Source: an uncultured Candidatus Saccharibacteria bacterium (GTDB lineage Bacteria > Patescibacteriota > Saccharimonadia > Saccharimonadales > EFPC-124). From it: a stretch of DNA of 64,000 nt. The notes beneath the pieces are model-generated. The model worked only from the letters and a program-made list of their open reading frames with translations, was not told the DNA's origin and did no database searches. The position numbers and the translations under genes are program-made. The stretch is taken from contig CBDDBE010000001.1 in assembly GCA_965225085.1 (NCBI GenBank), positions 193,641-257,640 on the forward strand. Reading direction: 5' to 3'. The first letter of the stretch is position 1; each line of letters opens with the position of its first letter. Positions 2,784 to 20,362 of this stretch are shown here, one piece after another.

Positions 2784-2855
2784 ATATCCATTATAGAACA
2801 AACCTCCCCATAATCGCAGACTCCGAGGTATAATAGCCGTAAAGGAGTAATCATC

Positions 2856-3254
2856 GTGACGACCACATCCCAACGCGGCTTTACCGTTCTAGAGCTCATC
2901 ATCGCCATCGTCTTCCTAATTGGCGCTGGTACTATTTTCTATGTACAGAAACGTGACCTCGAAGTCCAAGCTCGTGACTCGGCCCGCAAAACTGCCATCA
3001 ACGAAATATACTACAACCTCGAGGATGTATATTACGTAGCCAATCACGCGTATCCGCAAAAAATCACCGCCGATGTGCTAAAAGGGATAGACCCCGGCGT
3101 TCTGAAAGATCCAGACGGCGTAAGCCTAGGCGACAAAAATTCCAGCTACAGCTACGACCCTAAGGACTGCGCCAACAGCCTATGCAAAAGTTACACTCTC
3201 ACAGCCAACCTTGAGCACGAAGCAGACTACGTCAAAACCAGTCGTAATCAATAA
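2856..3254 (+). CDS. Type IV pilin-like / pseudopilin protein
   Basis: GTG start with SD aaggag. Class III signal QRG|FTVLELIIAIVFLIG with Glu at +5 of the mature end. Confidence 0.8.
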   Translation: MTTTSQRGFTVLELIIAIVFLIGAGTIFYVQKRDLEVQARDSARKTAINEIYYNLEDVYYVANHAYPQKITADVLKGIDPGVLKDPDGVSLGDKNSSYSYDPKDCANSLCKSYTLTANLEHEADYVKTSRNQ

Positions 3255-3259
3255 CTAGG

Positions 3260-4027: not shown

Positions 4028-4048
4028 AATAGTTCCTCTGTACTCTTA

Positions 4049-5083: not shown

Positions 5084-5658
5084 GCTGTGGCCAAAATCTT
5101 CAATGCCTGCTTGATGCGTGCCTGAATATCCTGGCCGGCGTCAACCCTACTCAGCGCATGTGTAGCGTGCTGGAGTGTGTAGCCCAGCGACACCAGCGCG
5201 TCGAGGGCATCATCACTACCAACTAGCTTGGCTGGCGAGCCCGACATCTGCAGCGTCGGCAGTCCAACCTTTTCGCGTAATTCATTCGTGACGCGCTCGG
5301 CAATGCGCTTGCCCACGCCAGCAGCCTGCTGCACGTAGGCGATGTCATTATTGGCAATTGCGCTGCGCACCTGCTCGGCCGACCCCAGACCCAGGATGCT
5401 TAGCGCCATGCGTGGTCCAACGCCGCTCACCGTGATAAGCATCTGAAATAACTTCTTAGCAGCCAGACTCGTAAACCCAAACAGATCGTGAGCGTTCTCG
5501 CGCAAGTGATCGTGCGTATAAAGCTTGACCATGTCGTGAAGGGTAGCGTGGTCAAAGTCCTCGCTAGCCACCAGCACCTCATAGCCCAAACCACCGACGT
5601 CCACAATAAGCGTACCGTCGAACTTTTCTACCACTTCCCCTGAGACATGCGCAATCAT
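5080..5658 (-). CDS. ruvA: Holliday junction DNA-binding protein RuvA
   Basis: 192 aa with an N-terminal OB fold and HhH motifs ([12 protein letters not shown]). Operon with ruvB. Confidence 0.93.
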
Positions 5659-5698
5659 AACTTTATTATGCCATAGACCCTAGATGCGTACTAGTCCC

Positions 5699-6193
5699 CT
5701 ACACCGTCGCTGAGCTATTATTGTACACCGGCATAGTAGCGTGAGTCAGCGCCGCGGCCAAGGCATCGGCACAGTCGTCTGGCTTCGGGACAGTACTGAG
5801 GCCCAGCATGATTCGTACCATTTCCTGAATTTGTTTCTTGTCGGCTTTGCCATAGCCCGTTACAGCCTGCTTGATCTGCATCGGTGTGTATTCAAAGATG
5901 GGAATACCGCGTTGCTGTCCCAGTAACAGCACGATGCCCCGAGCATGGCTCACCGAAATCGCCGTGGTCACGTTGCGGGCAAAGAACAACTTCTCGACCG
6001 ACATAGCATGGAGCTCATGGGCGTTCATCAGCTGCGCTAGCTCGTCGTGAATAGTCACGAGCCTCTCGGGTAGGGGCTGGTGCACGGGCGTGCGGATGAC
6101 ACCAGCGTCGAGCATCTTTGACGTGCCGCCGTAGTGCTCGATAATACCGAAGCCGAGAATACCAGTACCCGGATCGATACCGAGGATCTTCAT
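5699..6193 (-). CDS. ruvC: Holliday junction resolvase RuvC
   Basis: 164 aa starting MKILGIDPGTGILGFG, an RNase H-like RuvC pattern. Confidence 0.93.
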   Translation of the reverse strand: MKILGIDPGTGILGFGIIEHYGGTSKMLDAGVIRTPVHQPLPERLVTIHDELAQLMNAHELHAMSVEKLFFARNVTTAISVSHARGIVLLLGQQRGIPIFEYTPMQIKQAVTGYGKADKKQIQEMVRIMLGLSTVPKPDDCADALAAALTHATMPVYNNSSATV

Positions 6194-6197
6194 CGTG

Positions 6198-6923
6198 CTA
6201 GTCTTTGATCTCGGCGTTGGTGTGCACGTTGGCTACGTCGTCGAGGTCTTCGAGCATATTCAGCAGATTAGTCGCCTTGCGGGCCGTCTCGGCGTCGTCG
6301 ATCTCGACCATTTGATTGGGCACAAAGGTGAGTTCAGCCTCCTTGATATCAAAACCCCGGACCGCTATATCGTCACGCACCGCAGCCAGCTCCTTTGGAT
6401 CAGTATAAATGATAAGCTCGCTGTCGCCGATATCGTCGGCATCCTCGGCCCCAGCGTCGATGACGTTCAGCATCGCCTCGTCGGCATCGCCCAGATAGCC
6501 TGCGCGTATAACACCCTTGCGCGTAAACTGGAACGCCACTGCGCCCGGCTCCGCCATGTTGCCGCCGTTTTTGGTGAATGCCAGGCGCACCTCTGGATAT
6601 GTACGGTTTTTGTTATCGGTTGCGCACTCGACCATCACCGCCATGCCGCCTGGGCCATAGCCCTCGTACATTACCTCTTCGATAATCTCGTCGCCTAGCT
6701 TGCCGCTCCCGCGGTCGATGGATCGCTGAATGTTGGCCGTGGGCATATTGGCCGCCCGGGCCTTGTCGATTGCCAGACGCAGGGCAAAGTTTGTGTCCGG
6801 ATCGGCACCACCCTTAGCAGCAACGGCAATATTGTTGCCTAATTTCGTAAATTCTGCACCGCGGCGCGCGTCCTTAGCGCCTTTTTCTCGCTTGATGGTT
6901 GACCATTTTGAGTGTCCTGACAT
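6198..6923 (-). CDS. yebC: YebC/PmpR family transcriptional regulator
   Basis: 241 aa starting MSGHSKWSTIKREKGAKDARRG, the canonical YebC N-terminus. Confidence 0.93.
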   Translation of the reverse strand: MSGHSKWSTIKREKGAKDARRGAEFTKLGNNIAVAAKGGADPDTNFALRLAIDKARAANMPTANIQRSIDRGSGKLGDEIIEEVMYEGYGPGGMAVMVECATDNKNRTYPEVRLAFTKNGGNMAEPGAVAFQFTRKGVIRAGYLGDADEAMLNVIDAGAEDADDIGDSELIIYTDPKELAAVRDDIAVRGFDIKEAELTFVPNQMVEIDDAETARKATNLLNMLEDLDDVANVHTNAEIKD

Positions 6924-6971
6924 ATTACTCCCTGCTTGCGCTTCGTTGCTATTATTGTACCACTACTTGGC

Positions 6972-8414
6972 CTACTCGACGACACTTTTACTGAGGTAGT
7001 CATAGCGCATTCTGCGGTATAGTACATACCCAATCGCAACAAAGGCCGCGTAGCCGCAGGTCAAGCCCGCCCACGACAAAGAGATAGCCTGGTAGGCCCA
7101 CGGAACACTCGCCAGCCACCCGATGACGCCGGTTATATATCCCAATATGACCTCAGCAGGCAGTGCAAACCAACTACCGATACCCGGAAGCACGACCGCC
7201 CCAATCCCTCCCACGAATGTCGCCAACATCGCAGCCGGCACCAACGGCGCGACAATTATATTTGCCGCCAGCCCCACTATTGATACCTTACCAAATACCA
7301 GCAGCGTTAAGGGAACCGTCATCAGCTCGGCGCACAATGTCTCGAGGGCGATCTGCCCCAGCAGTGGTGCTGTACGCCGACCGTACAAGCGCTTTTGGAG
7401 AAGTGGCGCGCCCAGCATCACACCACCAAACGCCAGGAAGGACAAGTACCAGCCCAAGTCGCCCCAGACATATAGCGGATTGATGGCAGCCGTCACCGCT
7501 GCGCTGAATAGGAGTAGCACCAACGGGTGGATAACCCGTCCGTAATACCACGCCGCCAGCGACAACGACGTTACCAGTGCCGCTCGCGCCATACTCGCAC
7601 TCACACCAGTCACCCCGACAAAACCTATCATCAGCAGCACCGCAGCCAGCGTGGCCTGATACTTGGACCGCTTAGCCAGTAGCCGCCGCGCCGCCCGTAC
7701 CAGAATTGTCAGGTTATAACCCGATGCCACAACGATATGCGTCAGTCCCACAATCTTCAACTGGGCAGTCAAATCCTGTGGCAACTGTGATTTTATGCCC
7801 AGCAAAAACCCAAGGCCCAGGCTTGCCTGAGGCTCGGGCAGCACATTTAGCACCGCCGCGCTGAACTGCCGCCGCAATGTCGCCAAGCCAGATACGCCAT
7901 GCCCCTTCATCTGGACCGCGGCATAATACATCCCTAGCTGATAGCTTCCGAAACCCGACTGAGCTTTGGCAGTTACCGTGACTATATCACCCTGCTTCGG
8001 CTCGACTGCGCTAAAGCTCGTTACGTGCGCGCTACCCGGAACGTGCCATCCGTCCAACACAATATGGTCCATCATAAAGTCAATCTGGCCTTTCGAGCTA
8101 TAAGTCGAATCCTGGGTCACCACTCCAGTAACCGTCGCCCTTTCGCCGACCACCCGCCGATATGGCTGAAGTTGATGCTGCATATCCGCGCCGCGCCACA
8201 GTCCGACCATCAACCCACAGATCACGACCGCTGGAATCGCCACAATCAACCGTCGTCGATAACATAACACTAGCAAGCCGCACCCGACTGCCACGGCAAA
8301 AAATGACGTGCCCATCCCGGTCAGTGCCAATCCGACACCGCCCAGAAATGCCGCGCACCCAAAACCAATAAGCGTCGTTCGTTGAACCCGACGGCCTGAC
8401 ATCACTCCTTGCAT
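6972..8414 (-). CDS. comEC: ComEC/Rec2-family competence channel, short form without the metallo-beta-lactamase domain
   Basis: 480-aa polytopic membrane protein with a DUF4131-like OB segment and competence-domain helices. Start uncertain. Confidence 0.7.
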   Translation of the reverse strand: MQGVMSGRRVQRTTLIGFGCAAFLGGVGLALTGMGTSFFAVAVGCGLLVLCYRRRLIVAIPAVVICGLMVGLWRGADMQHQLQPYRRVVGERATVTGVVTQDSTYSSKGQIDFMMDHIVLDGWHVPGSAHVTSFSAVEPKQGDIVTVTAKAQSGFGSYQLGMYYAAVQMKGHGVSGLATLRRQFSAAVLNVLPEPQASLGLGFLLGIKSQLPQDLTAQLKIVGLTHIVVASGYNLTILVRAARRLLAKRSKYQATLAAVLLMIGFVGVTGVSASMARAALVTSLSLAAWYYGRVIHPLVLLLFSAAVTAAINPLYVWGDLGWYLSFLAFGGVMLGAPLLQKRLYGRRTAPLLGQIALETLCAELMTVPLTLLVFGKVSIVGLAANIIVAPLVPAAMLATFVGGIGAVVLPGIGSWFALPAEVILGYITGVIGWLASVPWAYQAISLSWAGLTCGYAAFVAIGYVLYRRMRYDYLSKSVVE

Positions 8415-8480
8415 TGCAGGGATTATATCGTACGTTGCCTCGTCTGGACAGTCGATAGCCAGTTAACCACAAAACGAAGA

Positions 8481-8537
8481 ACACCCCGCGCCAGCAACGG
8501 GCACCTTTTTGGGGTGTCCTCGCTGTAGCGCGGGGTG
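8481..8537 (-). terminator. GC-rich terminator with two alternative 5' arms
   Basis: On the minus strand, caccccgcg (8537-8529) or acacccc (8517-8511) can pair with cgcggggtgt (8490-8481). A tcttcgtttt run follows. Confidence 0.5.
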
Positions 8538-8547
8538 ATTGGGCGCC

Positions 8548-9069
8548 TCAGGTTTTGAACTGGGCCGCCGTAAGAAGGCTGACAAAGCCCAGGTGATCGG
8601 CCGGCACACTGATCTCGAATGAAGTCACGGCAACGCCGTCGTCTTCTATTCGTTGAGGGCGGCCCAAAACTCGTTGATCGCCCGCCGCCCTTATTTCACC
8701 GTGAAGAACACAGTTCGCCAGTCGTGCGTGCAAAGGTTCGTCGTCGCCGTAGAAGAAAAGGCCAAAGTGCCAATACCCCTCTCTGTACCGCGCGACGAAA
8801 ATCGACTCGTGATCCTGACCGCTGGGCGATCGTACTGGAGCCCAAAATGCCCAGCGCAATCTCGGGGTCACACCCTCGCTCGCATAGGTGCCGCCCACGA
8901 AATGGAGTCCATGCTTGAGTACCTGTGAGGCCCAGTGGCAAAAGGTGCCCAAATCCATATCAGCGCAGCCATGCAAATAGGTGCTCGAAGTAAGGTTGAT
9001 CGCTTCCATGCCTCGCATGCATGCGCGTTGGACGGGCGCCAGCCCGAGCCGCTTGATTGGGTCAGACAT
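8548..9069 (-). CDS. Orphan hypothetical protein (cassette A)
   Basis: 173 aa from MSDPIKRLG. Minus-strand promoter TTGACT (9138-9133), N18, TAAAAT (9114-9109). SD gaagggg. G+C-rich coding sequence with no family recognised. Confidence 0.55.
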   Translation of the reverse strand: MSDPIKRLGLAPVQRACMRGMEAINLTSSTYLHGCADMDLGTFCHWASQVLKHGLHFVGGTYASEGVTPRLRWAFWAPVRSPSGQDHESIFVARYREGYWHFGLFFYGDDEPLHARLANCVLHGEIRAAGDQRVLGRPQRIEDDGVAVTSFEISVPADHLGFVSLLTAAQFKT

Positions 9070-9163
9070 TGTATACCCCTTCGGGATAGACGATACTACC
9101 AACCTGCTATTTTACACATGTTTGTTTCGTGTAGTCAATCTACGCATTTATTTTCAGCCAAAC

Positions 9164-9200
9164 AAAAACGTCGACCGGTAGCGAAGGTGTCGACGTTTTT
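9164..9200. terminator. Bidirectional intrinsic terminator
   Basis: aaaaacgtcgac / gtcgacgttttt, a 12-bp stem immediately 3' of tRNA-Lys. Confidence 0.75.
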
Positions 9201-9203
9201 GCT

Positions 9204-9280
9204 TGGAGGGCCCACTGGGACTCGAACCCAGGACACGAGGCTTAAAAGGCCTCTGCTCTAACCTGCTGAGCTATGGGCCC
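9204..9280 (-). tRNA. tRNA-Lys (anticodon UUU), CCA encoded
   Basis: Hand-folded cloverleaf: GGGCCCA/TGGGCCC acceptor, anticodon loop CTTTTAA, T-loop TTCGAGT. Confidence 0.9.
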
Positions 9281-9328
9281 ACGCGTAACTTAGATCAAGA
9301 AGATTTTACCATTTTTACCCTGTTACCG

Positions 9329-9814
9329 TCAATGGTCTGCCTTCTTGCCGCTACGATGCGTTTGGCGCGTCATGAGGATATCGGCCAGGGCTGCGATGAT
9401 GCCGGCAACCGTAATGGCACTGCTATTGCTCGACAGAAAATTGTAGACCTGGTAACTAGTCGAACTCAATGTCAGCGCTGCACCAAGGGGCATCAGCAAA
9501 AAAACCAGTCCCATGAGCCCAAATGCCGCCGACCCCACCAGCCGCTGCACCTGGCTGGAATACTTCGGCCCACTAAACAGTAGTGCGAACGGCGGAGCTA
9601 AAATCAACAGCGCGGCCACCACTACGGCAAGCGGCGGCGTAACCAGCTCGACACCCTGGCTCTGTATCATCGGTGTCAGCGTAGCCGTCCAGCTAGCGCT
9701 GAGCAGTGAACCCGCACAAAGCGCCAGCCCCAAAACACCAAAACGGCGCTTTGTAAAATACGCCGCCCCAAACAAGGCAACAAACAACACAATAAAAACC
9801 ATAAGCGTATTCAT
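9329..9814 (-). CDS. Polytopic membrane protein, unknown function
   Basis: 161 aa with 4-5 hydrophobic helices. Last gene of the rimK-cluster transcription direction. Confidence 0.5.
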   Translation of the reverse strand: MNTLMVFIVLFVALFGAAYFTKRRFGVLGLALCAGSLLSASWTATLTPMIQSQGVELVTPPLAVVVAALLILAPPFALLFSGPKYSSQVQRLVGSAAFGLMGLVFLLMPLGAALTLSSTSYQVYNFLSSNSSAITVAGIIAALADILMTRQTHRSGKKADH

Positions 9815-9837
9815 GCTATCCCCATCATAGCACCGTG

Positions 9838-10293
9838 CTAGTTGACGGTGAAGCTCACAATCTGACCGATGCCGACACTATGCTGCTGCGTAAAGCCCGC
9901 CGGCAGCTCTAGCACATACTGCGCATCACGATCAGGCAAGAATGCCTTGGGGTACGTACTGGGCGCAACATTCTGCTGCACATACACCACCTTTTTGCCG
10001 CCATCCAGCCACACGATGTCGATGCTATAGTTCATGTCCTTCATCCACATGCCCCAACGGCCCGACCCATCAAAGACAAACAGCATCGCCTGATTATCCG
10101 CTAGCGACGACGTACCCGAAAGCCCCTTCTGACGCGAGGCATCATCGTGCGCGACCTGCGCATACACCAGGCGGTCGCCAATTGTCACGGCAACCTTATG
10201 GCTGTTCAGCGAAAGCAGTAGTGCCCCGCCGGCACCCAAAATCAGTACAAGCGCGACAATCATCACCCACTTGCCCAAGCTGTCGCGCTGCAT
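9838..10293 (-). CDS. DUF192 domain protein
   Basis: N-terminal TM/signal, then the DUF192 pattern (MLFVFD...WMKDM..SIDIVWLD...YVLELPAG). Confidence 0.7.
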   Translation of the reverse strand: MQRDSLGKWVMIVALVLILGAGGALLLSLNSHKVAVTIGDRLVYAQVAHDDASRQKGLSGTSSLADNQAMLFVFDGSGRWGMWMKDMNYSIDIVWLDGGKKVVYVQQNVAPSTYPKAFLPDRDAQYVLELPAGFTQQHSVGIGQIVSFTVN

Positions 10294-10299
10294 GTTTAG

Positions 10300-11202
10300 C
10301 TACGCCCCTACGCGGTCTTTTTTGTTGCGGCGCTTGGCGTTAAGCTCAATGTATTCGATAACCTTTTCAGCGATATTGCGGCCAGTGACTTTTTCGATAC
10401 CAAATCCAGGCGACGAGTTCACCTCGAGCACGAGCGGACCGCGCGAACTTCGCATCATGTCTACACCACAAAATGGTAACCCCATCGTCCGGGCTGTTTT
10501 GATCGCCATGCGGCGCTCTTCCTCGGTCAATTTGACCGGCTTGCCTTCGCCACCCTGATGCAGGTTCGAGCGAAAATCATCGTCCAGGCTCTGACGCATC
10601 ATGCTTGAGACGACTTTGTTGCCAACCACAACGGCACGAATGTCGGTGCCGGCCGATTCCTTCACAAATTCCTGAACCAAAAAGCTCACGTTCTCGACAT
10701 AAAATGCCTGCATAACCGCCTTGGCGGCTTTATTCGTTTCAGCCAGGACCACGCCGTTGCCATGCGTGCCGCGTGCCACTTTAATAATCAAGGGCGCACC
10801 ACCCGCTTGCTCAATCAAGTCGTCAAACGCGGCGGTCTCGCTGGCAAACAGGGTTGTCGGAATGCCGATCCCGGCGCGGGCTAGCAGCTGCATTGCACGC
10901 AGCTTGTCCCGCGAGCGCGTAATGGCGATCGAGTTAGCGGTCGTATAAATACCCCGCATCTCGAACTGACGCAGGATAGCCGCACCGTAGCGGGTGTAGC
11001 TCTGGGCAATCCGCGGGATAATCGCGTCAAAGTCGTCCAGGTCTTGCCCTTCGTACCGTACGACCGGCTTATTCTGCTCAACCTTTACGTAACACTTGGC
11101 ATAGTTAATGACGTGGATTTCATGGCCTTGTTTTTCGGCCTCTTCCCGGAGTCGCTTGGTCGAGTAGTTACCCGGCCCCTTGGATAAAATTGCGATCTTC
11201 AT
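10300..11202 (-). CDS. rimK: RimK-family alpha-L-glutamate ligase (ATP-grasp)
   Basis: 300 aa starting MKIAILS...YSTKRL, with ATP-grasp motifs and a full-length RimK-like sequence. Confidence 0.85.
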   Translation of the reverse strand: MKIAILSKGPGNYSTKRLREEAEKQGHEIHVINYAKCYVKVEQNKPVVRYEGQDLDDFDAIIPRIAQSYTRYGAAILRQFEMRGIYTTANSIAITRSRDKLRAMQLLARAGIGIPTTLFASETAAFDDLIEQAGGAPLIIKVARGTHGNGVVLAETNKAAKAVMQAFYVENVSFLVQEFVKESAGTDIRAVVVGNKVVSSMMRQSLDDDFRSNLHQGGEGKPVKLTEEERRMAIKTARTMGLPFCGVDMMRSSRGPLVLEVNSSPGFGIEKVTGRNIAEKVIEYIELNAKRRNKKDRVGA

Positions 11203-11217
11203 ATTCGTCGTTCCTCA

Positions 11218-11685
11218 TTATTTAGAAAACTCACTCCGTAGCTCATCTGCGCGTTGCCTCTCGGCGGCGTGGTCAGGCCGGCCCATCTGCACATCCACGA
11301 CAAACTTGCCATGGAGCGCCCGACGCCCGATAAGTACAGGATAGGCTTGTCGAGAGCGATCGGCAAGAGTAAAACTTGCACGAATTCGTCGTCCGTTAAT
11401 AATTACCATCAGTTTCACCTTGTAACGAATCTGCTGATGCCCCGTAGAGCTCGCCACAGCAACCCGCTGAAATTCATCCGCAAAGTGCTCTTCGCCAGAG
11501 TAAAATGAACTTTTTGGCCCAAATAGCACGAACGCCAAACCGCCGTCCCGCTCCTGGACGTGCGACGCCCAGATGGCTGACGTACGTGCACCAGTATCAA
11601 TCTTGGCCGGCACGCCAAAAAGCCCCTGGTCGGGCAAATCTATGACATCGGCTCGCCCAATAATATCTTTCGTTTTTTCTACCAT
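11218..11685 (-). CDS. RimK-associated retropepsin-like protease (COG4067, annotated as ATP-dependent zinc protease)
   Basis: Contains VIDLPDQGLFGVPAKIDTGARTSAIWA. Sits immediately upstream of rimK. Confidence 0.7.
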   Translation of the reverse strand: MVEKTKDIIGRADVIDLPDQGLFGVPAKIDTGARTSAIWASHVQERDGGLAFVLFGPKSSFYSGEEHFADEFQRVAVASSTGHQQIRYKVKLMVIINGRRIRASFTLADRSRQAYPVLIGRRALHGKFVVDVQMGRPDHAAERQRADELRSEFSK

Positions 11686-11763
11686 ATGTGTTGGTACTAT
11701 TGTATCAACTTTTTGTTATCTGGCGAAGATTACCCAGGCATTTATTGAATCCGAGTGCTCATT

Positions 11764-12873
11764 CTACCAAAGCTTCTTCTTCCGCCCCTCTGGCGTGCCA
11801 AATTCCTGCAGTAGTTCTTTTTGTCGCTTGGTGAGCTTGGTTGGCGTATCGACATGGATGGTCGCAATATGCGGCCCCCGACCATCACCGCGCAGATGTG
11901 GTACGCCATGATTGCTGAGCTTGAAGTCCGTTCCGCTTTGTGTGCCAGCGGGAATTTTCATGGTTAACTCGCCATCAACGGTGTCGATTTGAATCTCTGC
12001 GCCAAGTGCCGCCTGGACCATACTAATGCGTTCGTTGCTGAGGATGATGTCGCCTTCGCGGGTAAAATGCTTGTGCGATTTTACGCGAATATTTACATAC
12101 AAGTCGCCCTTTTCACCACCACGAATGGCCTCGCCCCGACCGCTCAGGCGGATGGTCGAGCCGTCATCGATGCCGGCAGGCACTTTTAGCTTGACTATCT
12201 GGTGTTCGCGCTCTGTTCCTTTGCCATGACAAACGGTGCAGGTCTTTTCCGGAATTTTGCCGCGACCTTCGCATGTTGGGCATACGGTGGCCTGCTGGAT
12301 TTGGCCGAACATCGTGTTCATGACGCGGTTGACTTGGCCCAATCCCTTGCAGGTGCCACACGTTTTGAGACCGTGGCCAGGCTCTGCCCCATCGCCCTTA
12401 CAGTGCGAACACGTGTCTTCCAGCGTGACAGAAATTTCCTTCTCGACGCCAAAAATAGCCTCATCAAAACTAAGGGTTACATTTACAGCAACATCCTGGC
12501 CACGACGGCTTTGCCCCTGCCGCTGCCCGCCGCCGAAGAAACTGCCAAAGATGTCGCCCAGCCCCAAATCGCCAAAATCGAAGTTGACATTCTGCCCCTG
12601 GCCGCCAAACCCTTGGAACCCTTCGAACGGATTACCCCCGCCGCCTCCGCCACTACCGCCTACTCCGGCATGGCCGAACTGGTCGTAGCGCTGCCGCTTC
12701 GACTGGTCCTTTAATACCTCGTAAGCTTCGTTGATCTCTTTGAACTTCGTCTCGTCGCCGCCCTCTTTATCCGGGTGGTATTTGACCGCTAACTTACGGA
12801 ATGATTTCTTGATCTCATCAGCAGATGCGTCCTTGGAAACGCCAAGGACTTCATAATAATCACGTTTGCTCAT
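11764..12873 (-). CDS. dnaJ: Chaperone DnaJ
   Basis: J domain with HPD, G/F region, and four CxxCxGxG zinc motifs. Confidence 0.97.
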
Positions 12874-12884
12874 ACAATTTTATT

Positions 12885-12911
12885 TTAGCACTTCAAGGCG
12901 AAGAGTGCTAA
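12885..12911. promoter_or_regulatory. CIRCE operator (HrcA site) upstream of dnaJ
   Basis: TTAGCACTT-N9-GAGTGCTAA, 11 nt upstream of the dnaJ ATG. Confidence 0.85.
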
Positions 12912-12980
12912 ATCTTACTTAAATTACATTAAAATGTGGTATGATATACTTGTTTCGTATCCCTCAATCGAGGAGTATCC

Positions 12981-13307
12981 ATGGCCGATCAAGCCCCGGG
13001 GACCACAAGCTACTACGTCTCTCGCATGCGCGTCCGACGCGAGCTGATCCCGGTTTACGAGAACGACGCCATTACGGCCTACCGCTGCGTGACCTACGCA
13101 GCGAACGGGCCTCAGGACGGCGACAAGGTCCTTGCCGATCAGGTCGAGTTCGAAGATGTCCTGATTGACATGAGGCTGATGCCAGCACGCGATCTTGCGC
13201 GAACGCTTCTTGCGAAGGGCTGGCGTGCACTCGATCTGGACAAGCTGGTCCTGCACCGGCCGACTGACAGCGAACCGCTCGAGACGCTGCTACGTATCGT
13301 CCAGTAA
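12981..13307 (+). CDS. Orphan hypothetical protein (cassette B)
   Basis: 108 aa. Extended -10 tggTATGAT (12937-12945), SD gaggag. The first 60 nt are 39/60 G+C versus 27/60 for dnaJ (hand count). Confidence 0.55.
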   Translation: MADQAPGTTSYYVSRMRVRRELIPVYENDAITAYRCVTYAANGPQDGDKVLADQVEFEDVLIDMRLMPARDLARTLLAKGWRALDLDKLVLHRPTDSEPLETLLRIVQ

Positions 13308-13349
13308 TAAAGCCTCGCAGCTGCGGCGGCCCGACCGGCATCTACAGCC

Positions 13350-13379
13350 GTGAGGCCCCGCGCACATGCGGGGCCTCAC
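13350..13379. terminator. GC-rich hairpin between convergent cassette B and dnaK
   Basis: gtgaggccccgc / gcggggcctcac, a 12-bp perfect stem with no U-tract. Confidence 0.6.
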
Positions 13380-13396
13380 TATATCGCCACAAAACG

Positions 13397-15298
13397 CTAT
13401 TTCTTCTCAGCGTCGTCTACGACCTCACCCTCAACAGGCTCGTCTGCTTTCTTGTCCTCGTCGGGCTGTGGGTCTTCGCTCGGCTTTTCGTCCTTGCTGA
13501 CGGCTTCGTACAGCTTGGCGCCGATTGGCATGATCTTCTCGTTCAGGTCTTTGCCGGCTTGAGTGACTTTCTCGAGGTCGTCAGAATTCTCGAACTCACG
13601 AGCGGCCTTGACGGCGTCCTCGATGACTTTTTTGTCCTCATCGCTGATCTTGTCCTTGTGCTCGGTTGGGAGCTTCTCGGCCTGATAGATGGTCTGGGCC
13701 AGCGTGTTCTTGGCGTCGACCAGCTCGCGCTTTTTCTTGTCCTCGTCGGCGTGGGCTTCGGCTTCCTTTTGGGCTTTTTCGATGTCATCTTTGCTGAGGT
13801 TACCGCTGTTCTGGATAGTGATGCTCTGCTCTTTGCCAGTGCCTTTGTCCTTGGCTGTCACGTTCAGGATGCCGTTGGCATCGAGGTTGAAGGTGACTTC
13901 GACTTGCGGCACGCCACGAGGTGCTGGCGCGATGCCGTCAAGGATAAATTTGCCCAGGCTCTTGTTGTCGGCTGCCATTTCGCGCTCGCCCTGCAGCACA
14001 TGAATTTCGACTTGCGGCTGATTGTCGGCAGCGGTGCTAAATGTCTCGGATTTGCTGGTCGGGATAGTAGTGTTGCGGTCGATCAGCTTAGTCGTTACAC
14101 CGCCCATAGTCTCGATACCAAGGCTCAGCGGAGTCACGTCCAGCAGCAGCACGTCCTTGACATCGCCAGCTAGCACGCCACCCTGAATGGCAGCACCAAC
14201 GGCTACGACTTCATCAGGGTTGACGCCCTTTAGCGGCTCCTTGCCAAAGATCTTCTTGACCTTCTCGACGACAGCCGGCATGCGGGTCATACCGCCAACC
14301 AGTACAATCTCGTCGATGTCGGCAGCGGTCAGGCCAGCGTCTTTGAGAGCCTTCTCGCACGGAGCAGCCGTATTGTCGATCAAATCAGCAACAATTTCCT
14401 CCAGCTTGGCACGAGTCAGCTTGGTCTCGAAGTGCTTTGGACCATCGGCATCAGCGGTCAGGAATGGCAGGTTGATGTCTGTTTCGGTCGTGGTGCTGAG
14501 CTCTTTCTTGGCCTTCTCGGCTTCGTCCTTCAGGCGCTGCATCGCGGCGTTGTCGCCCTTCAGGTCCACGCCGTGCTCTTTCTTGAACTCCTCTAGAAAA
14601 TAATTGACCAAACGATTGTCAAAGTCTTCACCGCCCAAGTGCGTGTCACCGTTGGTGCTTTTGACTTCGAACACGCCATCGCCCAGCTCGAGGATGGACA
14701 CGTCAAACGTACCGCCACCAAGGTCAAAAACGGCAATCTTCTCTTCCTTTTTCTTGTCCAGGCCGTAGGCCAAGGCAGCTGCAGTTGGCTCGTTGATGAT
14801 ACGTTTGACCTCAAGGCCGGCAATCTTGCCTGCGTCCTTAGTCGCTTGGCGCTGAGAATCGTCGAAGTAAGCCGGAACGGTGATAACCGCTTCGGTAACG
14901 GGCTCGCCCAGGAACGCCTCGGCGTCTGCCTTCAGCTTGCTGAGGATCATGGCGCTGACTTCCTCGGGGCTGTATTCTTTGTCGCCCATCTTTACCTTTA
15001 CGCTGTCGGCGGCGCGTACAATTTCGTAGGGCATCAGGTCGAGGTCCTTCTGGACCTCGGGGCTATCGAACTTGCGGCCGATCAAACGCTTCACGCCATA
15101 AATCGTATTACGCGCATTGGTCACTCGCTGTCGCTGCGCCACCTGACCGACCAAACGCTGGCCGGCCTTGTTGATGGCCACTACGCTCGGCGTTGTGCGG
15201 TTTCCCTCGGCATTTGCAATAACCTCAGGCTTACCAGCAATCATATACGCTACCGCGCTGTTGGTTGTGCCGAGGTCAATTCCGATAATTTTACCCAT
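13397..15298 (-). CDS. dnaK: Chaperone DnaK (Hsp70)
   Basis: 633 aa starting GIDLGTTNS, with a full-length Hsp70 sequence. Confidence 0.98.
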
Positions 15299-15393
15299 AG
15301 GTCCTCCTGATTTATTACATTTGAAAGTAAATACAATATGTTCTTATCTTAGCAGCAGCGTGTACCGACTGCTAATACACCTAGCATAAAAAA

Positions 15394-15420
15394 TTAGCAC
15401 TCGCGAGTCAAGAGTGCTAA
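15394..15420. promoter_or_regulatory. CIRCE operator upstream of dnaK, with an embedded -35
   Basis: TTAGCACTC-N9-GAGTGCTAA. On the coding strand the spacer reads TTGACTcgc, and TATGCT lies 17 nt downstream (15388-15383). Confidence 0.9.
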
Positions 15421-15439
15421 TTTGATCTTCCTGGCATGG

Positions 15440-16006
15440 CTATTCCTCGCCGCGGGTCTCTTTCTCGTGCTCGACTGGCAGCTCGCTAGCCTTGGTTCCT
15501 TCTATCGCGTCCAGCGCAGCCTCTTCGGGTGCATGTTCGGGCGCTTCCTGGCCGGTAACCTTGACTAGGCTATGCCGAACAACCTGGCCGTCCAGCATAT
15601 ACCCGGCCCGTAGTTCTTCGCTCACCACTTGGTGCTCACCGTCACCGTCAGCGCTGATTGCTTCGTGCAGGTTTGGGTCAAACACCTGCCCAACGCTTAC
15701 GATGCGCGCAAGGCCTAGATCGGCCAGCGACTTCTCTAGGCTCCTACCCAACGAGCTAATGCCCCTGGCCCACTGGTTATCGGCCAGCTCGGCAGGCACG
15801 TGCATGACCGCTCGCTCGATGTTGTCGACGACGGGCAATAGTTTTAGCACTGTTGCGGCCCTGGCACTCTGAACTGTACGTTGCCGCTCCTCGTCCATGC
15901 GCGTTCGATAATTCACAAAGTCTGCCTGCACCCGTTTCAGGTCGGCAGTCAGCTCGTCCAGGTGCTCCTCGAGCTCTGATTCGCGTTTGCTCTTTTTATC
16001 TGCCAT
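15440..16006 (-). CDS. grpE: Nucleotide exchange factor GrpE
   Basis: 188 aa with a coiled-coil N-terminus and GrpE C-terminal pattern (FDPNLHEA...GY.L.GQVVR...V.V). Confidence 0.93.
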   Translation of the reverse strand: MADKKSKRESELEEHLDELTADLKRVQADFVNYRTRMDEERQRTVQSARAATVLKLLPVVDNIERAVMHVPAELADNQWARGISSLGRSLEKSLADLGLARIVSVGQVFDPNLHEAISADGDGEHQVVSEELRAGYMLDGQVVRHSLVKVTGQEAPEHAPEEAALDAIEGTKASELPVEHEKETRGEE

Positions 16007-16052
16007 AACGGCCTCCAGATTATACTTGCGTGTTTACCTTATCGTATGGCAA

Positions 16053-16079
16053 TTAGCAGTCAGCAGTCAAGACTGCTAG
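16053..16079. promoter_or_regulatory. CIRCE-variant operator upstream of grpE
   Basis: TTAGCAGTC-N9-GACTGCTAG. The spacer reads TTGACTgct on the coding strand. Confidence 0.75.
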
Positions 16080-16155
16080 ATAGTCGCGCCATTCTATGAT
16101 ATCCTCCTTTTCGGAACAGGTCCCTGTCCGACTCCTACAGAATGAGGTAGACGTC

Positions 16156-16608
16156 GTGAAGTATACTGGCATCAACTACGAAGTCGAACCTGGCAAGGCC
16201 GTCTTCTTCGGCTCTGAGGTCAACCGGAACATCCGCCCTGGTCAGTGGTACATGAAGGGCTTTCCTGCCGGCGACGCAATTGGAGCTGCCTTCGCCGCGA
16301 CGTACTGTCCGGTTCGCAGCATGCGCGATGTCCGTCGGGACATCCTGGGCTGCATCCAGAAGGCCAAGCGGGCTGGCACCGGTCGCGAGATGAGCATGGT
16401 CCTGGTCTACAAGACCCACGCCCTGTTCCTCTTCGCACAAGGCGTGCTGGCCGTCGAGGACTTCAGCCGGGAGCTCACCGAAGCCGCCGGCTCCATCGAC
16501 GTGCCGAATGTCAGATTCGGGCGTCGCCGACTGACGGTGCGCATCGTCGACAATGAAGCCTACTTCCAGGCCCCCGTCGCGGCCGACAGTGACGGTAACC
16601 TGATCTGA
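16156..16608 (+). CDS. Orphan hypothetical protein (cassette C)
   Basis: GTG start 7 nt after SD gaggt. The ATG at 16096 from the ORF track lies inside the -10 TATGAT (16095-16100). G+C-rich, no family recognised. Confidence 0.5.
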   Translation: MKYTGINYEVEPGKAVFFGSEVNRNIRPGQWYMKGFPAGDAIGAAFAATYCPVRSMRDVRRDILGCIQKAKRAGTGREMSMVLVYKTHALFLFAQGVLAVEDFSRELTEAAGSIDVPNVRFGRRRLTVRIVDNEAYFQAPVAADSDGNLI

Positions 16609-16612
16609 CATC

Positions 16613-16646
16613 CGAGGGGCGTGCCCGTACAAACGGGAACGCCCCT
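16613..16646 (+). terminator. GC-rich hairpin after cassette C
   Basis: gaggggcgt / acgcccctc outer stem with cccgt / acggg inner stem. Confidence 0.6.
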
Positions 16647-16718
16647 CATTCAATGTCTGTACATCTAACCCCAAATGCAGAAGACACATAGGACGTCGCG
16701 CGATCGACTACAGAAATA

Positions 16719-16747
16719 TTGACTATTTATAATTTTTATTGTATGAT
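16719..16747 (+). promoter_or_regulatory. Sigma70-like promoter of cassette D
   Basis: TTGACT-N17-TATGAT in an AT-rich stretch. Confidence 0.65.
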
Positions 16748-16780
16748 CTAAAACAGTTCTTCCCCCTCAGGAGGTGAACC

Positions 16781-16813
16781 ATGAATCGCAACGTGATATT
16801 GTTTGCGATCTAG
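16781..16813 (+). CDS. 10-codon leader mini-ORF (MNRNVILFAI)
   Basis: Near-perfect SD aggaggtga 5 nt upstream of the ATG. It lies in the 5' leader of cassette D and is followed by the direct repeat GAATTGAC x2 (16823-16830 and 16839-16846). Confidence 0.35.
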   Translation: MNRNVILFAI

Positions 16814-16896
16814 CCCTTACCGGAATTGACATGACGACGAATTGACGTTTCGACCGGCCCAATAGCAGCCAACCGAACCGACAAATCGGAGTAGCC

Positions 16897-17316
16897 ATGT
16901 CGTTTGACCCCGAAGCACTGGCCCGACTCGCAGAGTTCGCTCGCGAGCTCGACGCGCCAGAAGGAGAGACCTTCGATGAGCTGCAACAAGCTCGCGAAGA
17001 CGAAGCCGCTGCCACCCGCGAGGCGCTCCGTCGCCGAATCGCCGAGCTGGATGAACTGGCCAATCAGGCCCGTGAGTCTGCGGCACAAGCGACCAGGGAG
17101 TACAGAGCCAAACTCGCAAAGCAGATCGACCGAGTTCGGCACGAGCCCAGGCTCACCCGCGGACAACGCAACGACTGGTACCGCGATCTCGAGCGTGGCG
17201 CTATCCCAGCAGACGTATTCTACGAACGCGAGCTGCAACTGGGAACGTACTACAGTCTCCGTCGCAAGCAGCAACAGCTGAAGCGCGAGCTCGCTGCGCT
17301 GGAGAACGAGGGCTAA
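16897..17316 (+). CDS. Orphan coiled-coil, charged hypothetical protein (cassette D)
   Basis: 139 aa rich in E/R/A/L heptad-like sequence. SD ggag. G+C-rich. Confidence 0.55.
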   Translation: MSFDPEALARLAEFARELDAPEGETFDELQQAREDEAAATREALRRRIAELDELANQARESAAQATREYRAKLAKQIDRVRHEPRLTRGQRNDWYRDLERGAIPADVFYERELQLGTYYSLRRKQQQLKRELAALENEG

Positions 17317-17318
17317 CG

Positions 17319-17358
17319 CCCCCAGAAAAGGCCCTCAAGCCTCAACTGGGGGTCTTTT
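17319..17358 (+). terminator. Intrinsic terminator after cassette D
   Basis: cccccag / ctggggg stem with an inner aggc/gcct stem, followed by tctttt. Confidence 0.7.
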
Positions 17359-17381
17359 CATATCGCGATCCCGGAATGAGA

Positions 17382-18080
17382 CTACAACACTTCTTCGAGT
17401 GATTGACCTGCGTGCGCCACGAGCCCCATTACTTGTCGGTAACTCTGCCTGGTTGGGCCTAGCACGCCGATGTAGCTGTGATCGGAAAAGGGCGAATGGA
17501 ACCTGCTAATAATAAGCGAGCAGCCGCTTTCCTTGCCAATTGGGTTCTCGCGGCCAATATAGACGCTAAGCGGTTTATTGGGAGCTGCCTCGCGCAGCCA
17601 CGGCTCGAGGTTATCAAGTAATTGCGCAACCTCATGGACCGGACCAATAGCCTGTAGGAATTCTGGTCGCATGAATAAACGCGAAAATCCACTGAGGTAC
17701 AGTTGGTCGCCAATAGTTGCCAGCCCGACGTTGTGGGTTAGCTCGGCCAGCATATCCACGGCTGAGCGAATGGCAAATTCCGGCCTGCCAGCTTGGCTTA
17801 ACCGAGTATCCATAGCTCTTGCCGTGCGATCGACGGCGTTATTATCGGCAGCTGTTAGCTGATTGACATAGAATCGATAGCCCTTGTCGGTGGGAATCCG
17901 CCCCGCAGAGGTGTGCGGCTGCATGATATAGCCCATTTCCTCTAGGCGGCTCATCTCAGCGCGAATAGTTGCCGAGCTCACATCAAAGATCTTACCCAAC
18001 ATCACCGAGCCAACCGGGGAGGCAACCTCAGCATATTGCTCGACAATAGCAGCTAAAATATGGGCCTGTCGTTCAGTCAT
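17382..18080 (-). CDS. hrcA: Heat-inducible repressor HrcA
   Basis: Starts MTERQAHILAAIVEQY (wHTH N-terminus). The longer ORF-track start would translate through the CIRCE element, so the internal Met was chosen. Confidence 0.9.
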   Translation of the reverse strand: MTERQAHILAAIVEQYAEVASPVGSVMLGKIFDVSSATIRAEMSRLEEMGYIMQPHTSAGRIPTDKGYRFYVNQLTAADNNAVDRTARAMDTRLSQAGRPEFAIRSAVDMLAELTHNVGLATIGDQLYLSGFSRLFMRPEFLQAIGPVHEVAQLLDNLEPWLREAAPNKPLSVYIGRENPIGKESGCSLIISRFHSPFSDHSYIGVLGPTRQSYRQVMGLVAHAGQSLEEVL

Positions 18081-18101
18081 TATTCTATTATGGTACGTCG
18101 T

Positions 18102-18128
18102 TTGGCACTCACGAGTCAAGAGTGCCAA
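18102..18128. promoter_or_regulatory. CIRCE-variant operator upstream of hrcA
   Basis: TTGGCACTC-N9-GAGTGCCAA. The spacer reads TTGACTcgt on the coding strand. Confidence 0.8.
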
Positions 18129-18171
18129 ACCCAGACGCTGCGTGGCATACCGCAGCAAGTTACAAAAAGTG

Positions 18172-18200
18172 TTGACTTATACATATATACCTGCTATTAT
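18172..18200 (+). promoter_or_regulatory. Near-consensus sigma70-like promoter
   Basis: TTGACT-N17-TATTAT. Confidence 0.7.
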
Positions 18201-18206
18201 AGCCAA

Positions 18207-18777
18207 ATCAGCTTGGGCGACAAACGTTGCCCCTGCGTAATTTGATAGATAGTTTGTGAAGTCATGTCGGACTGAATCCACCAAAATCTTTGGTGTAGCC
18301 AGTCCGACATGACCCCCGACGCAAGTGTTTGCAGAGGGGTCCCGTTCAGTATCCGAAAGGGTCACGATGATGATGAGGTCCGTGCGGCACATGGCCGCTC
18401 CGAGCTCGAATGTGATCTAAGGCCGGCCGGCGCCCCGCCGACACGATGACCGCATATGCGGACCGCGAAGTTTGACCTAGCGTCAACGCCTTCACGGCTG
18501 TCATGCGGCATCGTCCACACCGTCTTTTTTCTTTTCCGAAAGGAACGCCTCGTGCGCAACAAGAAGAAACCCGTGGCGGCGTCGGCCGCACGCACTAAGT
18601 AGGTAACTTGTGGCACTGCAGGCCACGAGCATCGAAAGGTGCAAAGACGGGCTCGCCCGAGAGGATGATTTGCCCTCCGTGGATGTTGCATTAAACCACG
18701 GACGGCAGTCGCCTCTCAGGGCGAGCCCCTCGCTCCAAACTATCTATCGAAGCAAGCACCCTATCTGGGTGCTTTTC
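18207..18777 (+). ncRNA. Candidate ~570-nt structured non-coding RNA (unclassified), or a decayed cassette
   Basis: Bounded by a promoter and a terminator (agcaccc-tatct-gggtgct-tttc, 18755-18777). No SD-led ORF over 50 codons on the + strand. Contains a 13-bp perfect stem (18262-18274 / 18300-18312, with inner stem 18279-18285 / 18289-18295), an 80-nt near-perfect hairpin (18649-18728), and three cgaaagg loops. Confidence 0.4.
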
Positions 18778-18796
18778 AATTTGCTTTCATTTTTTA

Positions 18797-19648
18797 CTAG
18801 CTCAGGGTGAGCAGGAAATCATTTGTATCTTGCTCTAACCGTTCGGCAACGCGACGAAGACGCCGCCTAGAAGCTTCGCCGACAGAACCGCCCTCCACGA
18901 TATTGCGCACTTGCTGTGTCGCATGCTCAATAGTGTCATTCAGAACAATATGTAGGCGATCGTCCTGGCTGGCCATTTGAAAAATACGCTCTGCCGTCTG
19001 CAATCGACGCTTTAGCTCCAGCGGGTCCATCTCGCCGCGCTTCGAAAGTCTCTGCTGCCAGGTGTGAAAATCTGGCGGCAGGACCAACAACGCAATCGTG
19101 TCTTCCTTGGCATCTAGCGCATTCGCCACCCCACCAATATCCACATCAGTAATGGCGATGCGATGCTCACGCGTTGCGCGCTCGAGCTCACGGATACTGA
19201 TGCCCGAAACTTGCTGCCCATGAATCACCTCGGCCTCCAAAAATTCCCCGGCCTTGAGGTCGCGAAGCACGTCTGCCTCGCTGCGGAACCAATACTCCTT
19301 GCCGTCCTCTTCCCATTCACCATTGTTTTGACGCTTAGGGCGAGTTGTGTCAGAAATGACGTAGTGGTATTTGCCGGTTTTAACCAACTCCCAAATAATC
19401 GTATTGCGACCGGCCGCTGTTGGGCCACTCATAACCGCAAACGTTACGCGGCCTAGAACCCGGCGAGCATGATCGCTCGGCTGATAATTACTAATAGTTT
19501 CCTCAAATTCAGCACGATGCACCAGACGAGGCGACTGGGGCTGTGCCGAGAAGTTGTCTTCCATGCGGACACTATACAAAATATTGCCCTCTTTTCCTAA
19601 TGCATTCTGGGCGAAGTAACAAAAGAGCCGTCCGATCGGGCGGCTCAT
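18797..19648 (-). CDS. gmk: Guanylate kinase-like protein with N- and C-terminal extensions
   Basis: P-loop GPTAAGRNT and TTRPKR...EYWFRS...GEFLEAEVIHG match the Gmk core. The start is uncertain, with an alternative Met at 19564. Confidence 0.7.
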   Translation of the reverse strand: MSRPIGRLFCYFAQNALGKEGNILYSVRMEDNFSAQPQSPRLVHRAEFEETISNYQPSDHARRVLGRVTFAVMSGPTAAGRNTIIWELVKTGKYHYVISDTTRPKRQNNGEWEEDGKEYWFRSEADVLRDLKAGEFLEAEVIHGQQVSGISIRELERATREHRIAITDVDIGGVANALDAKEDTIALLVLPPDFHTWQQRLSKRGEMDPLELKRRLQTAERIFQMASQDDRLHIVLNDTIEHATQQVRNIVEGGSVGEASRRRLRRVAERLEQDTNDFLLTLS

Positions 19649-19668
19649 CTGCTTAGAGATTTCGCAAA

Positions 19669-20241
19669 CTATTTGTTCTGCTGCTTGTAGCTATTGATCG
19701 CCTGGACAACTTTACCGTCATTCTTCAGGTTCTCCCAGAACAACACCTGCTGACGCGAGATGTACATAGTGTCTTCTGGCCCATGTAGCTCGCTCCCAAG
19801 CTTGGCCAGCGAGACCTGGGACTGCGAGTTGTCAGTCTTGGTCTTGTCCGCAGGCTGGACACTCTGCTGCACCTGCAGATAGAAAATGTCCGTGAGCTTG
19901 ACGTAACCCTTGCTAGTATCGCTAACTTTGCCAAAGTACACCTGGCCGTTAGTCAAGAAAACTGCCTGGTATTGTCCTGACTTCACACCGGCGTCACCAC
20001 CCATGTTTGACCACGCAAGCCATCCGCCCATTACGAGGACAATAATCACCACAACCGCGACGACCATCATCATTAACGATTTTGAAGATTTGCCTGAGCT
20101 GTTTTGCATATGTGTGGCCTGCACCGGCGCTTCAGCGCCGCCTCCCATTGAATTTACGTTGTCATTTGGCGCACTTTGGGCGCGTGTTGGTTCAGGATAA
20201 CGACGAGCGCTTGAACCAGTCTGGCTGTTCCTAAATTCCAT
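19669..20241 (-). CDS. Single-pass membrane protein, unknown function
   Basis: Disordered N-terminus, one TM (MMMVVAVVVIIVLVMGGWLAW), and an extracytoplasmic beta-rich domain. Confidence 0.5.
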   Translation of the reverse strand: MEFRNSQTGSSARRYPEPTRAQSAPNDNVNSMGGGAEAPVQATHMQNSSGKSSKSLMMMVVAVVVIIVLVMGGWLAWSNMGGDAGVKSGQYQAVFLTNGQVYFGKVSDTSKGYVKLTDIFYLQVQQSVQPADKTKTDNSQSQVSLAKLGSELHGPEDTMYISRQQVLFWENLKNDGKVVQAINSYKQQNK

Positions 20242-20362
20242 AACCTCACCTTTTAGTTACTACCCTTACTAACAATCCAGTGTAGTAAAAAACGACCCTC
20301 AGCACAAGCGCTATGCAGCATTATCACGTTTTGTAAGTTATAATAGGGAACGAATAATACTA

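Follow-up and report, generated by a model that had tools for sequence, protein, structure and literature searches.

In a 64,000-nt stretch of a Candidatus Saccharibacteria (TM7) genome, two minus-strand genes of the chaperone cluster, hrcA and grpE, are held apart by 1,375 bp carrying two genes that read the other way. The arrangement raises the questions of what this interval is and where it came from, how grpE could remain part of its regulon, and whether a ten-codon reading frame ahead of the second gene is a regulatory leader peptide, as an earlier note on this DNA had proposed. Throughout, the window means the whole 64,000-nt stretch, and positions are counted from its first letter. The explanation that we favor, with moderate confidence, is a mostly ordinary one: a lineage-specific insertion that split an ancestral operon, plus a compensating promoter that carries the controlling inverted repeat of chaperone expression (CIRCE). 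A block of about 1.4 kb (16007-17381) would have broken the ancestral CIRCE-hrcA-grpE operon and brought with it two independent, monocistronic plus-strand open reading frames (ORFs), ORF C and ORF D; grpE would have lost the hrcA promoter and gained a sigma-70-type promoter and CIRCE operator of its own.

An insertion between hrcA and grpE

The minus-strand genes are readily identified. hrcA (17382-18080; Pfam HrcA, 6.7e-16; TIGR00331, 1.6e-53) encodes a protein of 232 residues whose true ATG, at 18080, agrees with the Logan gene call; it is followed by grpE (15440-16006; Pfam GrpE, 5.8e-32) and dnaK (13397-15298). The interval from the grpE start to the hrcA stop contains two plus-strand genes, ORF C (16156-16608; GTG start, 150 residues) and ORF D (16897-17316; 139 residues), and a grpE promoter that bears a CIRCE. 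Each plus-strand unit has a promoter-like site, a Shine-Dalgarno (SD) sequence, and a hairpin or terminator of its own. Every sequence feature that the earlier note had listed was found, at most 1 nt from where it had been placed.

We compared the locus with nine relatives (L003 through L008 and L080 through L082). The best genome matches returned by searches with HrcA and GrpE are metagenome-assembled genomes of Saccharimonadales and Nanosyncoccaceae, with HrcA proteins 63-71% identical to that of the window; three metagenome contigs are nearer, namely L081 (HrcA 86% identical), L082, and L080. hrcA and grpE are co-directional and adjacent in all nine. They overlap in L005, L006, and L008. 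Gaps of 20 bp (L081), 22 bp (L082), 137 bp (L080), and 219 bp (L003) separate them in four others, that of L003 being taken up by a small ORF on the same strand. The 1,375-bp interval is present in none of the nine, and no CIRCE separates the two genes in any of them. At the DNA level, the window and L080 through L082 cease to be homologous precisely at the hrcA stop (17382/3) and the grpE ATG (16006).

Because the nine relatives keep hrcA and grpE adjacent, the interval is specific to this lineage; this adjacency, the lack of an intervening CIRCE, and the exact ends of homology together indicate that the 1.4-kb block is a gain here. The claim that two autonomous plus-strand units separate hrcA from grpE is thereby upheld, and the reservation attached to it, that relatives might carry the same genes at this position, does not apply, the nine being uninterrupted by them. 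The GC content of both ORF C and ORF D is 0.62, against 0.545 ± 0.032 for the genes of the window, which fits acquisition. Two Logan contigs that contain this locus are 100% identical to the window and so offer no population variation for an analysis of nonsynonymous and synonymous substitution rates (dN/dS).

What kind of element the block might be was sought in several ways. Neither ORF matches a Pfam or PHROG family and thus no recombinase is recognizable; the features of an insertion sequence, an integrative element, or a prophage fragment (recombinase, terminal repeats, duplication, known relatives) were not found, and searches for relatives of the block among phages, plasmids, and IMG/VR gave no matches. 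A 24-nt similarity 5' of both cassettes (16069-16092 and 16681-16704; 71%) was taken as chance.

The promoter in front of grpE shows how the gene could have stayed in its regulon. Using the CIRCE consensus inverted repeat TTAGCACTC-N9-GAGTGCTAA, we found four matches with at most three mismatches in the window, where 100 shuffles give an expectation of 0.00: before dnaJ (12885-12911), dnaK (15394-15420, a perfect match), grpE (16053-16079), and hrcA (18102-18128). The grpE element reads TTAGCAGTC-N9-GACTGCTAG and has three mismatches; two of them are a symmetric C/G swap, so that the arms remain complementary. It is embedded in a minus-strand promoter (16041-16079, from the promoter scan and the CIRCE match) whose -35 TTGACT (16070-16065) lies within the CIRCE spacer and whose -10 TACGAT (16046-16041) follows 18 nt on. 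The hrcA, grpE, and dnaK promoters share this design, with TTGACT inside the spacer and the -10 hexamer 17-18 nt later.

By sequence, then, the element has what identifies a CIRCE: an inverted repeat, overlap with the promoter of a chaperone gene, and an HrcA encoded in the same genome. With its own sigma-70-type promoter and CIRCE operator, grpE should therefore stay under HrcA control, and we infer that, when the hrcA promoter was lost to it, the gene either kept or gained an HrcA-controlled promoter of its own. The gene order is that of the Bacillus subtilis-type hrcA-grpE-dnaK-dnaJ operon, HrcA is present, and the operators are the same 9-N9-9 inverted repeats overlapping a sigma-A-type promoter. 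Unlike that operon, the one in the window is fragmented: hrcA, grpE, dnaK, and dnaJ each have a CIRCE, small opposite-strand genes occupy the hrcA-grpE and dnaK-dnaJ gaps, and the grpE operator carries the C/G swap in both arms.

Beside the perfect CIRCE, just 5' of dnaK, is another repeat of the CIRCE type, a variant (15349-15375) that on the minus strand reads TTAGCAGTC-N9-TGCTGCTAA. The unusual TTAGCAGTC half-site recurs in the grpE operator, a hint that the grpE element may have come from this repeat.

ORF C and its family

ORF C is a genuine gene and a divergent member of an uncharacterized family of about 140 residues. A full phmmer scan with the 150-residue product returned 14 homologous representatives (E 1.6e-11 to 7.5e-4), of which 12 are 133-150 residues long and match end to end; tblastn against the family loci gave E values of 1e-10 to 1e-15. 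A word-indexed protein search missed every one of the homologs found by phmmer. The proteins share an N-terminal G.N[FY].V..G...FFG motif, then IDIP.V and LTVRI, and a C-terminal ATADxDGNIL. ORF C keeps the invariant G74, E109, I114, P117, A143, D144, and G147; it is the most divergent member, having a loop enlarged by 8 inserted residues and substitutions at two positions that are nearly invariant. The AlphaFold model built from the alignment of the family (A1, 14 rows) is a confident α/β domain (predicted local distance difference test [pLDDT] 91.6; predicted template modeling score [pTM] 0.86) for which Foldseek found no neighbor in PDB or BFVD at E ≤ 1e-3. The family has no match in Pfam, PHROG, NCBIfam, PADLOC, or the sequences of PDB.

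The first residues of the homologs align with the GTG at 16156, which is preceded at 8 nt by an SD sequence, GAGG (16144-16147; duplex energy -6.9 kcal/mol). An ATG at 16096, which would give a protein of 170 residues, was rejected as the start on the grounds of these aligned N termini and of the SD at the GTG; it falls within the TATGAT at 16095-16100. This TATGAT, read from the sequence and unreported by the promoter scan, is the only -10-like site for ORF C, and it does adjoin the grpE CIRCE, 16 nt away, as the earlier note had it. The small stem that had been noticed in the leader is likewise there, as a bulged hairpin (16112-16130; cggaacagg/cctgtccg, one bulge), although the leader as a whole folds no better than its shuffles (z 0.04). 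On the 3' side of the gene, a GC-rich hairpin (16614-16647) with 15-nt arms that are 93% complementary, and no U-tract, is the presumed end of the transcript.

The Logan gene call in this place is a different one, a minus-strand ORF of 184 residues (16135-16689), and if that ORF were real, co-directional as it is with hrcA and grpE, ORF C would be its shadow. Its frame is open, and its product is held by the protein collection (NCBI, Logan), whereas the exact ORF C sequence is absent from that collection of 15 billion proteins. Searches with the 184-residue product return only itself, however, against the 14 plus-strand homologs with aligned N termini and shared motifs and the well-predicted plus-strand model. 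Under a codon model trained on the long ORFs of the window, the ORF C frame scores 0.289 per codon and the antisense frame 0.148, and no SD precedes the ATG at 16689. We rejected the 184-residue ORF and find its being the real gene scarcely credible; the plus-strand reading given by the earlier note stands despite the annotation.

Elsewhere, the family has a setting that the window copy lacks. In the 13 distinct loci inspected, the family C gene always stands alone amid unrelated housekeeping genes; there are three copies in tandem in L073 and an internally duplicated protein of 278 residues in L071. The family includes a protein entered as a Candidatus Saccharibacteria hypothetical protein and a member encoded on a 990-kb contig. 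Four of the 13 carry a match to the RNA RAGATH-10 (RF03147; Rfam gathering score 41.2 bits) in the 5' leader, two above the gathering score (L078, 55 bits; L160, 50.9 bits) and two below it (L070, 28.9 bits; L162, 28.6 bits). Downstream, a type III hammerhead (Hammerhead_3, RF00008; gathering score 48.5 bits) is matched in three, all below the gathering score: L160 (44.1 bits, with a canonical CUGAUGA...GAAA core), L162 (29 bits), and L078 (27.4 bits); none was found in L070. In all four loci the 3' strand of the RAGATH-10 closing helix, GAUGAGGAGA, is the SD of the gene.

RAGATH stands for RNAs Associated with Genes Associated with Twister and Hammerhead, and these flanks place the family among the genes behind that name. 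As RAGATH-10 occurs in only four of the 13 loci, the RNA does not define the protein family. A search of the literature found nothing on RAGATH-10 specifically, and nothing on the sequencing runs that contain this organism (SRR9179560 and SRR9179562).

Several details of these conserved cassettes (L160, 3860-4590; L078, 330-1012; L162, 3940-4980; L070, 730-860) were observed alongside. An upstream hairpin, CACAAGAUGAG...CUCAUCUUGUG, has a 3' arm that doubles as the 5' strand of the RAGATH-10 closing helix. In that helix CCUCAUC pairs with GAUGAGG, the SD, and this excludes the upstream pairing, a mutual exclusion like that in riboswitch-like expression platforms. A compensatory change (GGUGAGG/CCUCACC) is seen in L070, and a block farther upstream, TTGACAAG, is conserved in L160, L078, and L162. 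L160 also has a GC-rich hairpin 3' of the gene.

ORF C is 28-39% identical to the genes of the RAGATH-10/hammerhead cassettes, has the same length and the same ATADxDGNIL, and, like L160, stands alone as a GC-rich unit with a GC-rich hairpin after it; it differs in having neither RNA. Rfam found no RAGATH-10 or hammerhead at 16000-16950 with E ≤ 10, nothing at E ≤ 1 over 15300-18700, and only four tRNAs in the whole window. The 49-nt leader resembles RAGATH-10 only in CCUC...AUGAGGUAGA; a degenerate RAGATH-10 was considered and rejected, since the resemblance is confined to these flanks, the covariance model gives no match, and the fold is that of shuffled sequence. The ORF C copy has thus lost, or never had, both RNAs. 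None of the other family C genes has a CIRCE on its 5' side.

In one locus, L069 (3942-5591), the family C gene lies between two ORFs of 132 and 137 residues that match PF18451 CdiA_C (E ~1e-14), both without a delivery domain. An immunity protein to CdiA-CT toxins was considered as a role for the family and rejected, the arrangement being seen in one of the 13 loci. The same neighborhood bears on a further explanation, in which ORF C and ORF D would be a two-gene module, toxin with immunity protein or antitoxin, or a defense system, carried on a mobile element. The two arrived together, have similar GC, and are both small. Yet an ORF D-like neighbor is present at none of the 13 family C loci, promoter and terminator are separate for each gene, and PADLOC, PHROGs, Pfam, and NCBIfam give no significant match; integrase, transposase, target-site duplication, terminal repeats, and phage, plasmid, or IMG/VR relatives are all missing, and the CdiA_C setting occurs only once. 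We consider such a module very improbable and retain the insertion of two independent genes.

ORF D and the mini-ORF in its leader

ORF D would encode a charged protein, preceded by the SD GGAG (16888-16891). The AlphaFold2 model from the single sequence is all-helical (pLDDT 85; helices at residues 5-18, 26-81, 88-99, and 105-138) and its fold matches are generic coiled coils only, in keeping with the 139-residue charged coiled-coil ORF of the earlier note. The codon score is 0.169, against 0.119 for the antisense frame, and the promoter, SD, and terminator are all oriented along the plus strand. The terminator is an intrinsic one found by the terminator scan (17319-17360; CCCCCAG...CTGGGGG, then TCTTTTC). 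Searches of Pfam, PHROGs, NCBIfam, PADLOC, and PDB sequences gave nothing significant: the best PADLOC E value, 0.0016, is confined to the coiled-coil stretch, and family C has no PADLOC hit at all. Among 5.8 billion proteins, ORF D hit only itself in the word-indexed search, the only one made with it at this scale, and no homologs were found in phages, plasmids, IMG/VR, or the fetched loci.

The 5' side of this unit is distinctive. The promoter that had been noted at 16719-16747 is recovered by the promoter scan as TTGACT-17-TATGAT, with ten of the 12 consensus positions (-10 at 16742-16747). It is followed by an SD, AGGAGGTGA (16769-16777), and by a mini-ORF, MNRNVILFAI (16781-16813; atg aat cgc aac gtg ata ttg ttt gcg atc tag), which ends 83 nt before the ORF D start. 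The mini-ORF SD is, as had been claimed, better than that of ORF D: its duplex with the anti-SD (-11.6 kcal/mol) is the strongest among seven sites scored, including dnaK (-10.3), grpE (-9.3), and ORF D (-6.1). AGGAGG followed at 4-9 nt by a start codon is found just five times, both strands of the window counted; in the four other cases the ORF so opened has 64 codons or more. A tandem 16-nt repeat, GAATTGACATGACGAC/GAATTGACGTTTCGAC (16823-16854; 81% identity), lies between mini-ORF and ORF D. The direct repeat GAATTGAC, which the earlier note had singled out, is present (16823-16830 and 16839-16846), yet 64 comparable 8-mer repeats occur in the window, a chance level at which we rejected it as an operator.

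The earlier note had taken the mini-ORF for a leader peptide of the attenuation or sensing type, in which the behavior of the ribosome on MNRNVILFAI would remodel the leader RNA and control translation of ORF D. The setting invites this: within an intergenic region, a promoter close to consensus and a near-perfect SD with an ATG spaced at 6 nt precede a gene with the weaker SD, and the minimum free energy (MFE) fold pairs GACAUG (16828-16833) with CAUGUC (16896-16901), covering the ORF D start codon. At the sequence level only, this is the short ORF with a ribosome-binding site that an attenuator requires upstream of its gene. Against it, no hairpin with a U-run was seen between the mini-ORF and ORF D, and no terminator or mutually exclusive structures were found that would link translation of the leader to the ORF D SD. 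The fold of the 152-nt leader is not significant (z -1.53; 13 of 200 shuffles are equally stable). When 16769-16828 was forced to be unpaired, mimicking a ribosome, the probability that the ORF D SD and AUG are unpaired moved from 0.29 to 0.24, so that masking does not open the site. With no terminator, no significant structure, and no masking effect, translational attenuation is therefore unsupported.

The ermC, cat, and cmlA attenuators likewise have a short strong-SD ORF 5' of a weaker-SD gene on the same predicted transcript; here, by contrast, alternative pairing is not demonstrable and the downstream gene is not a resistance gene. ORF D is neither a resistance nor a biosynthetic gene, the kinds known for such control, and we know of no stalling motif that resembles MNRNVILFAI. 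Rfam finds no known RNA in the leader of ORF C or ORF D, and the searches found no locus homologous to ORF D or its leader. On balance, and given the 83-nt gap, we find a regulatory leader peptide unlikely.

Most likely, though with low confidence, the mini-ORF would serve the ORF D mRNA as a 5' element that binds ribosomes. The distance from its SD to the 5' end predicted from the -10 at 16742-16747 is about 15 nt, which fits either a loading or 5'-protecting site of the STAB-SD type (stabilizing SD) or a plain translated upstream ORF; a switchable attenuator fits less well than either. In Bacillus, 5'-proximal ribosome-binding sites stabilize the mRNAs of cryIIIA, the ermC leader, and SP82. 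As in those cases, a very strong SD lies near the predicted 5' end, here about 120 nt 5' of the main start; in the window, however, it is followed by a proper ATG and a ten-codon ORF.

A relic is nearly as likely as a 5' element, because MNRNVILFAI resembles the first ten residues of a signal peptide or membrane anchor: the mini-ORF may be what is left of a longer gene that was cut short as the block was put together. Alternatively, the SD and the ATG may stand together by chance; ORF D would then merely share the promoter. A basic N terminus followed by VILFAI is signal-peptide-like and stops abruptly, and all three frames on its 3' side are closed within 35 nt. Coincidence is made plausible by about 12 other sites in the window at which GGAGG and a start codon open an ORF of fewer than 40 codons, and by a nearby direct repeat that is itself at chance level. 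On the other hand, the full AGGAGG with a start occurs only the five times in 128 kb of strand, elsewhere always before at least 64 codons; the intact promoter and SD would be unexpected in a decayed gene, and no paralogous 5' end was found in the window. We hold a relic or coincidence possible but doubtful, and keep the 5' element as the reading of first choice.

Several points weigh against the reading that we favor for the locus as a whole. No transposase, target-site duplication, or terminal repeats account for the arrival of the block. All promoters and transcript ends are predicted, and the promoter of ORF C is weak, with a poor -35 (CTGCTA) inside a CIRCE arm. That ORF D is coding rests on a small codon margin, on its signals, and on an AlphaFold2 model of a kind partial to helix-prone sequence; its status as a singleton is provisional, since the sole search tool used missed all the homologs of ORF C. 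The STAB-SD-type role of the mini-ORF, held at low confidence, draws on analogy with Bacillus.

The chaperone cluster and what the locus means

The block lies in an 18-kb region (2166-20256) in which nearly all long ORFs are on the minus strand. The plus-strand protein-coding exceptions noticed there are ORF C, ORF D, and an ORF of 108 residues (12981-13307), all in regions with GC above that of their neighbors. The third occupies the dnaJ-dnaK gap (12874-13396), has no Pfam match, and is laid out as cassette C is: an extended -10, TGgTATGAT (12937-12945), stands 30 nt from the dnaJ CIRCE (12885-12911), the SD is GAGGAG, and a perfect GC-rich hairpin follows (13351-13380). A homolog in L082 is 50% identical and also antisense to grpE/dnaK, and the insertion is therefore older than the hrcA-grpE block. 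In the closest relatives, lineage-specific genes have instead entered the grpE-dnaK gap. Those of L081 (4540-6600) are an opposite-strand ORF of 203 residues, a hydrophobic ORF of 149 residues, and one of 89 residues; the last shares WYG..GE.LRFADL..AEQRVALIA.GGLL with a 61-residue ORF of L080 (1358-1543). In this clade, small genes seem to have settled in the chaperone cluster repeatedly.

Beyond hrcA, a strong plus-strand promoter (18172-18200; TTGACT-17-TATTAT with an upstream TG) diverges from the hrcA CIRCE and precedes about 340 nt without a convincing ORF, between hrcA and a guanylate-kinase-like gene. This stretch, within 18172-18545, folds much more stably than its shuffles (MFE -138.5 kcal/mol; z -4.9; none of 100 shuffles equals it) and ends in a T-run at 18526-18540. 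It finds no match in Rfam and no similarity in any fetched locus, and is annotated by the Logan gene call with a minus-strand ORF of 71 residues. We note it as a candidate novel structured RNA.

Small genes beside CIRCE operators recall chlamydial HagF, a lineage-specific small protein that is repressed by HrcA and binds it (PMC12154930). By that analogy, the opposite-strand small genes of the chaperone cluster might have joined the HrcA regulon as new members particular to this lineage, with an influence on heat shock; ORF D may be one of them and would in addition be gated by a ten-codon leader that senses translation. The likeness lies in lineage-specific small proteins next to CIRCE operators in a reduced genome; the window ORFs have no sequence relationship to HagF, and their control by HrcA, co-repression of ORF C included, is possible but purely conjectural. 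We think this extended reading distinctly unlikely. If it were true, ORF C would be the first RAGATH-10/hammerhead-associated member to have been rewired from RNA-based to protein-repressor control.

The locus is a combination of known kinds, with nothing categorically new, and the leader-peptide idea adds no new regulatory principle on present evidence. Some points of interest do follow. For annotation, the protein collection (NCBI, Logan) carries an antisense shadow ORF in the place of ORF C. The protein family whose genes have RAGATH-10 and a hammerhead match at their flanks in several genomes, Saccharibacteria among them, is now recognizable, and ORF C, a natural copy free of either RNA, makes a useful comparison for the roles of RAGATH-10 and the hammerhead. 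For the organism, an essential, autoregulated chaperone operon would have been broken up by incoming genes and mended with a new copy of the operator-promoter, an example of how regulons may be kept intact in very small genomes.

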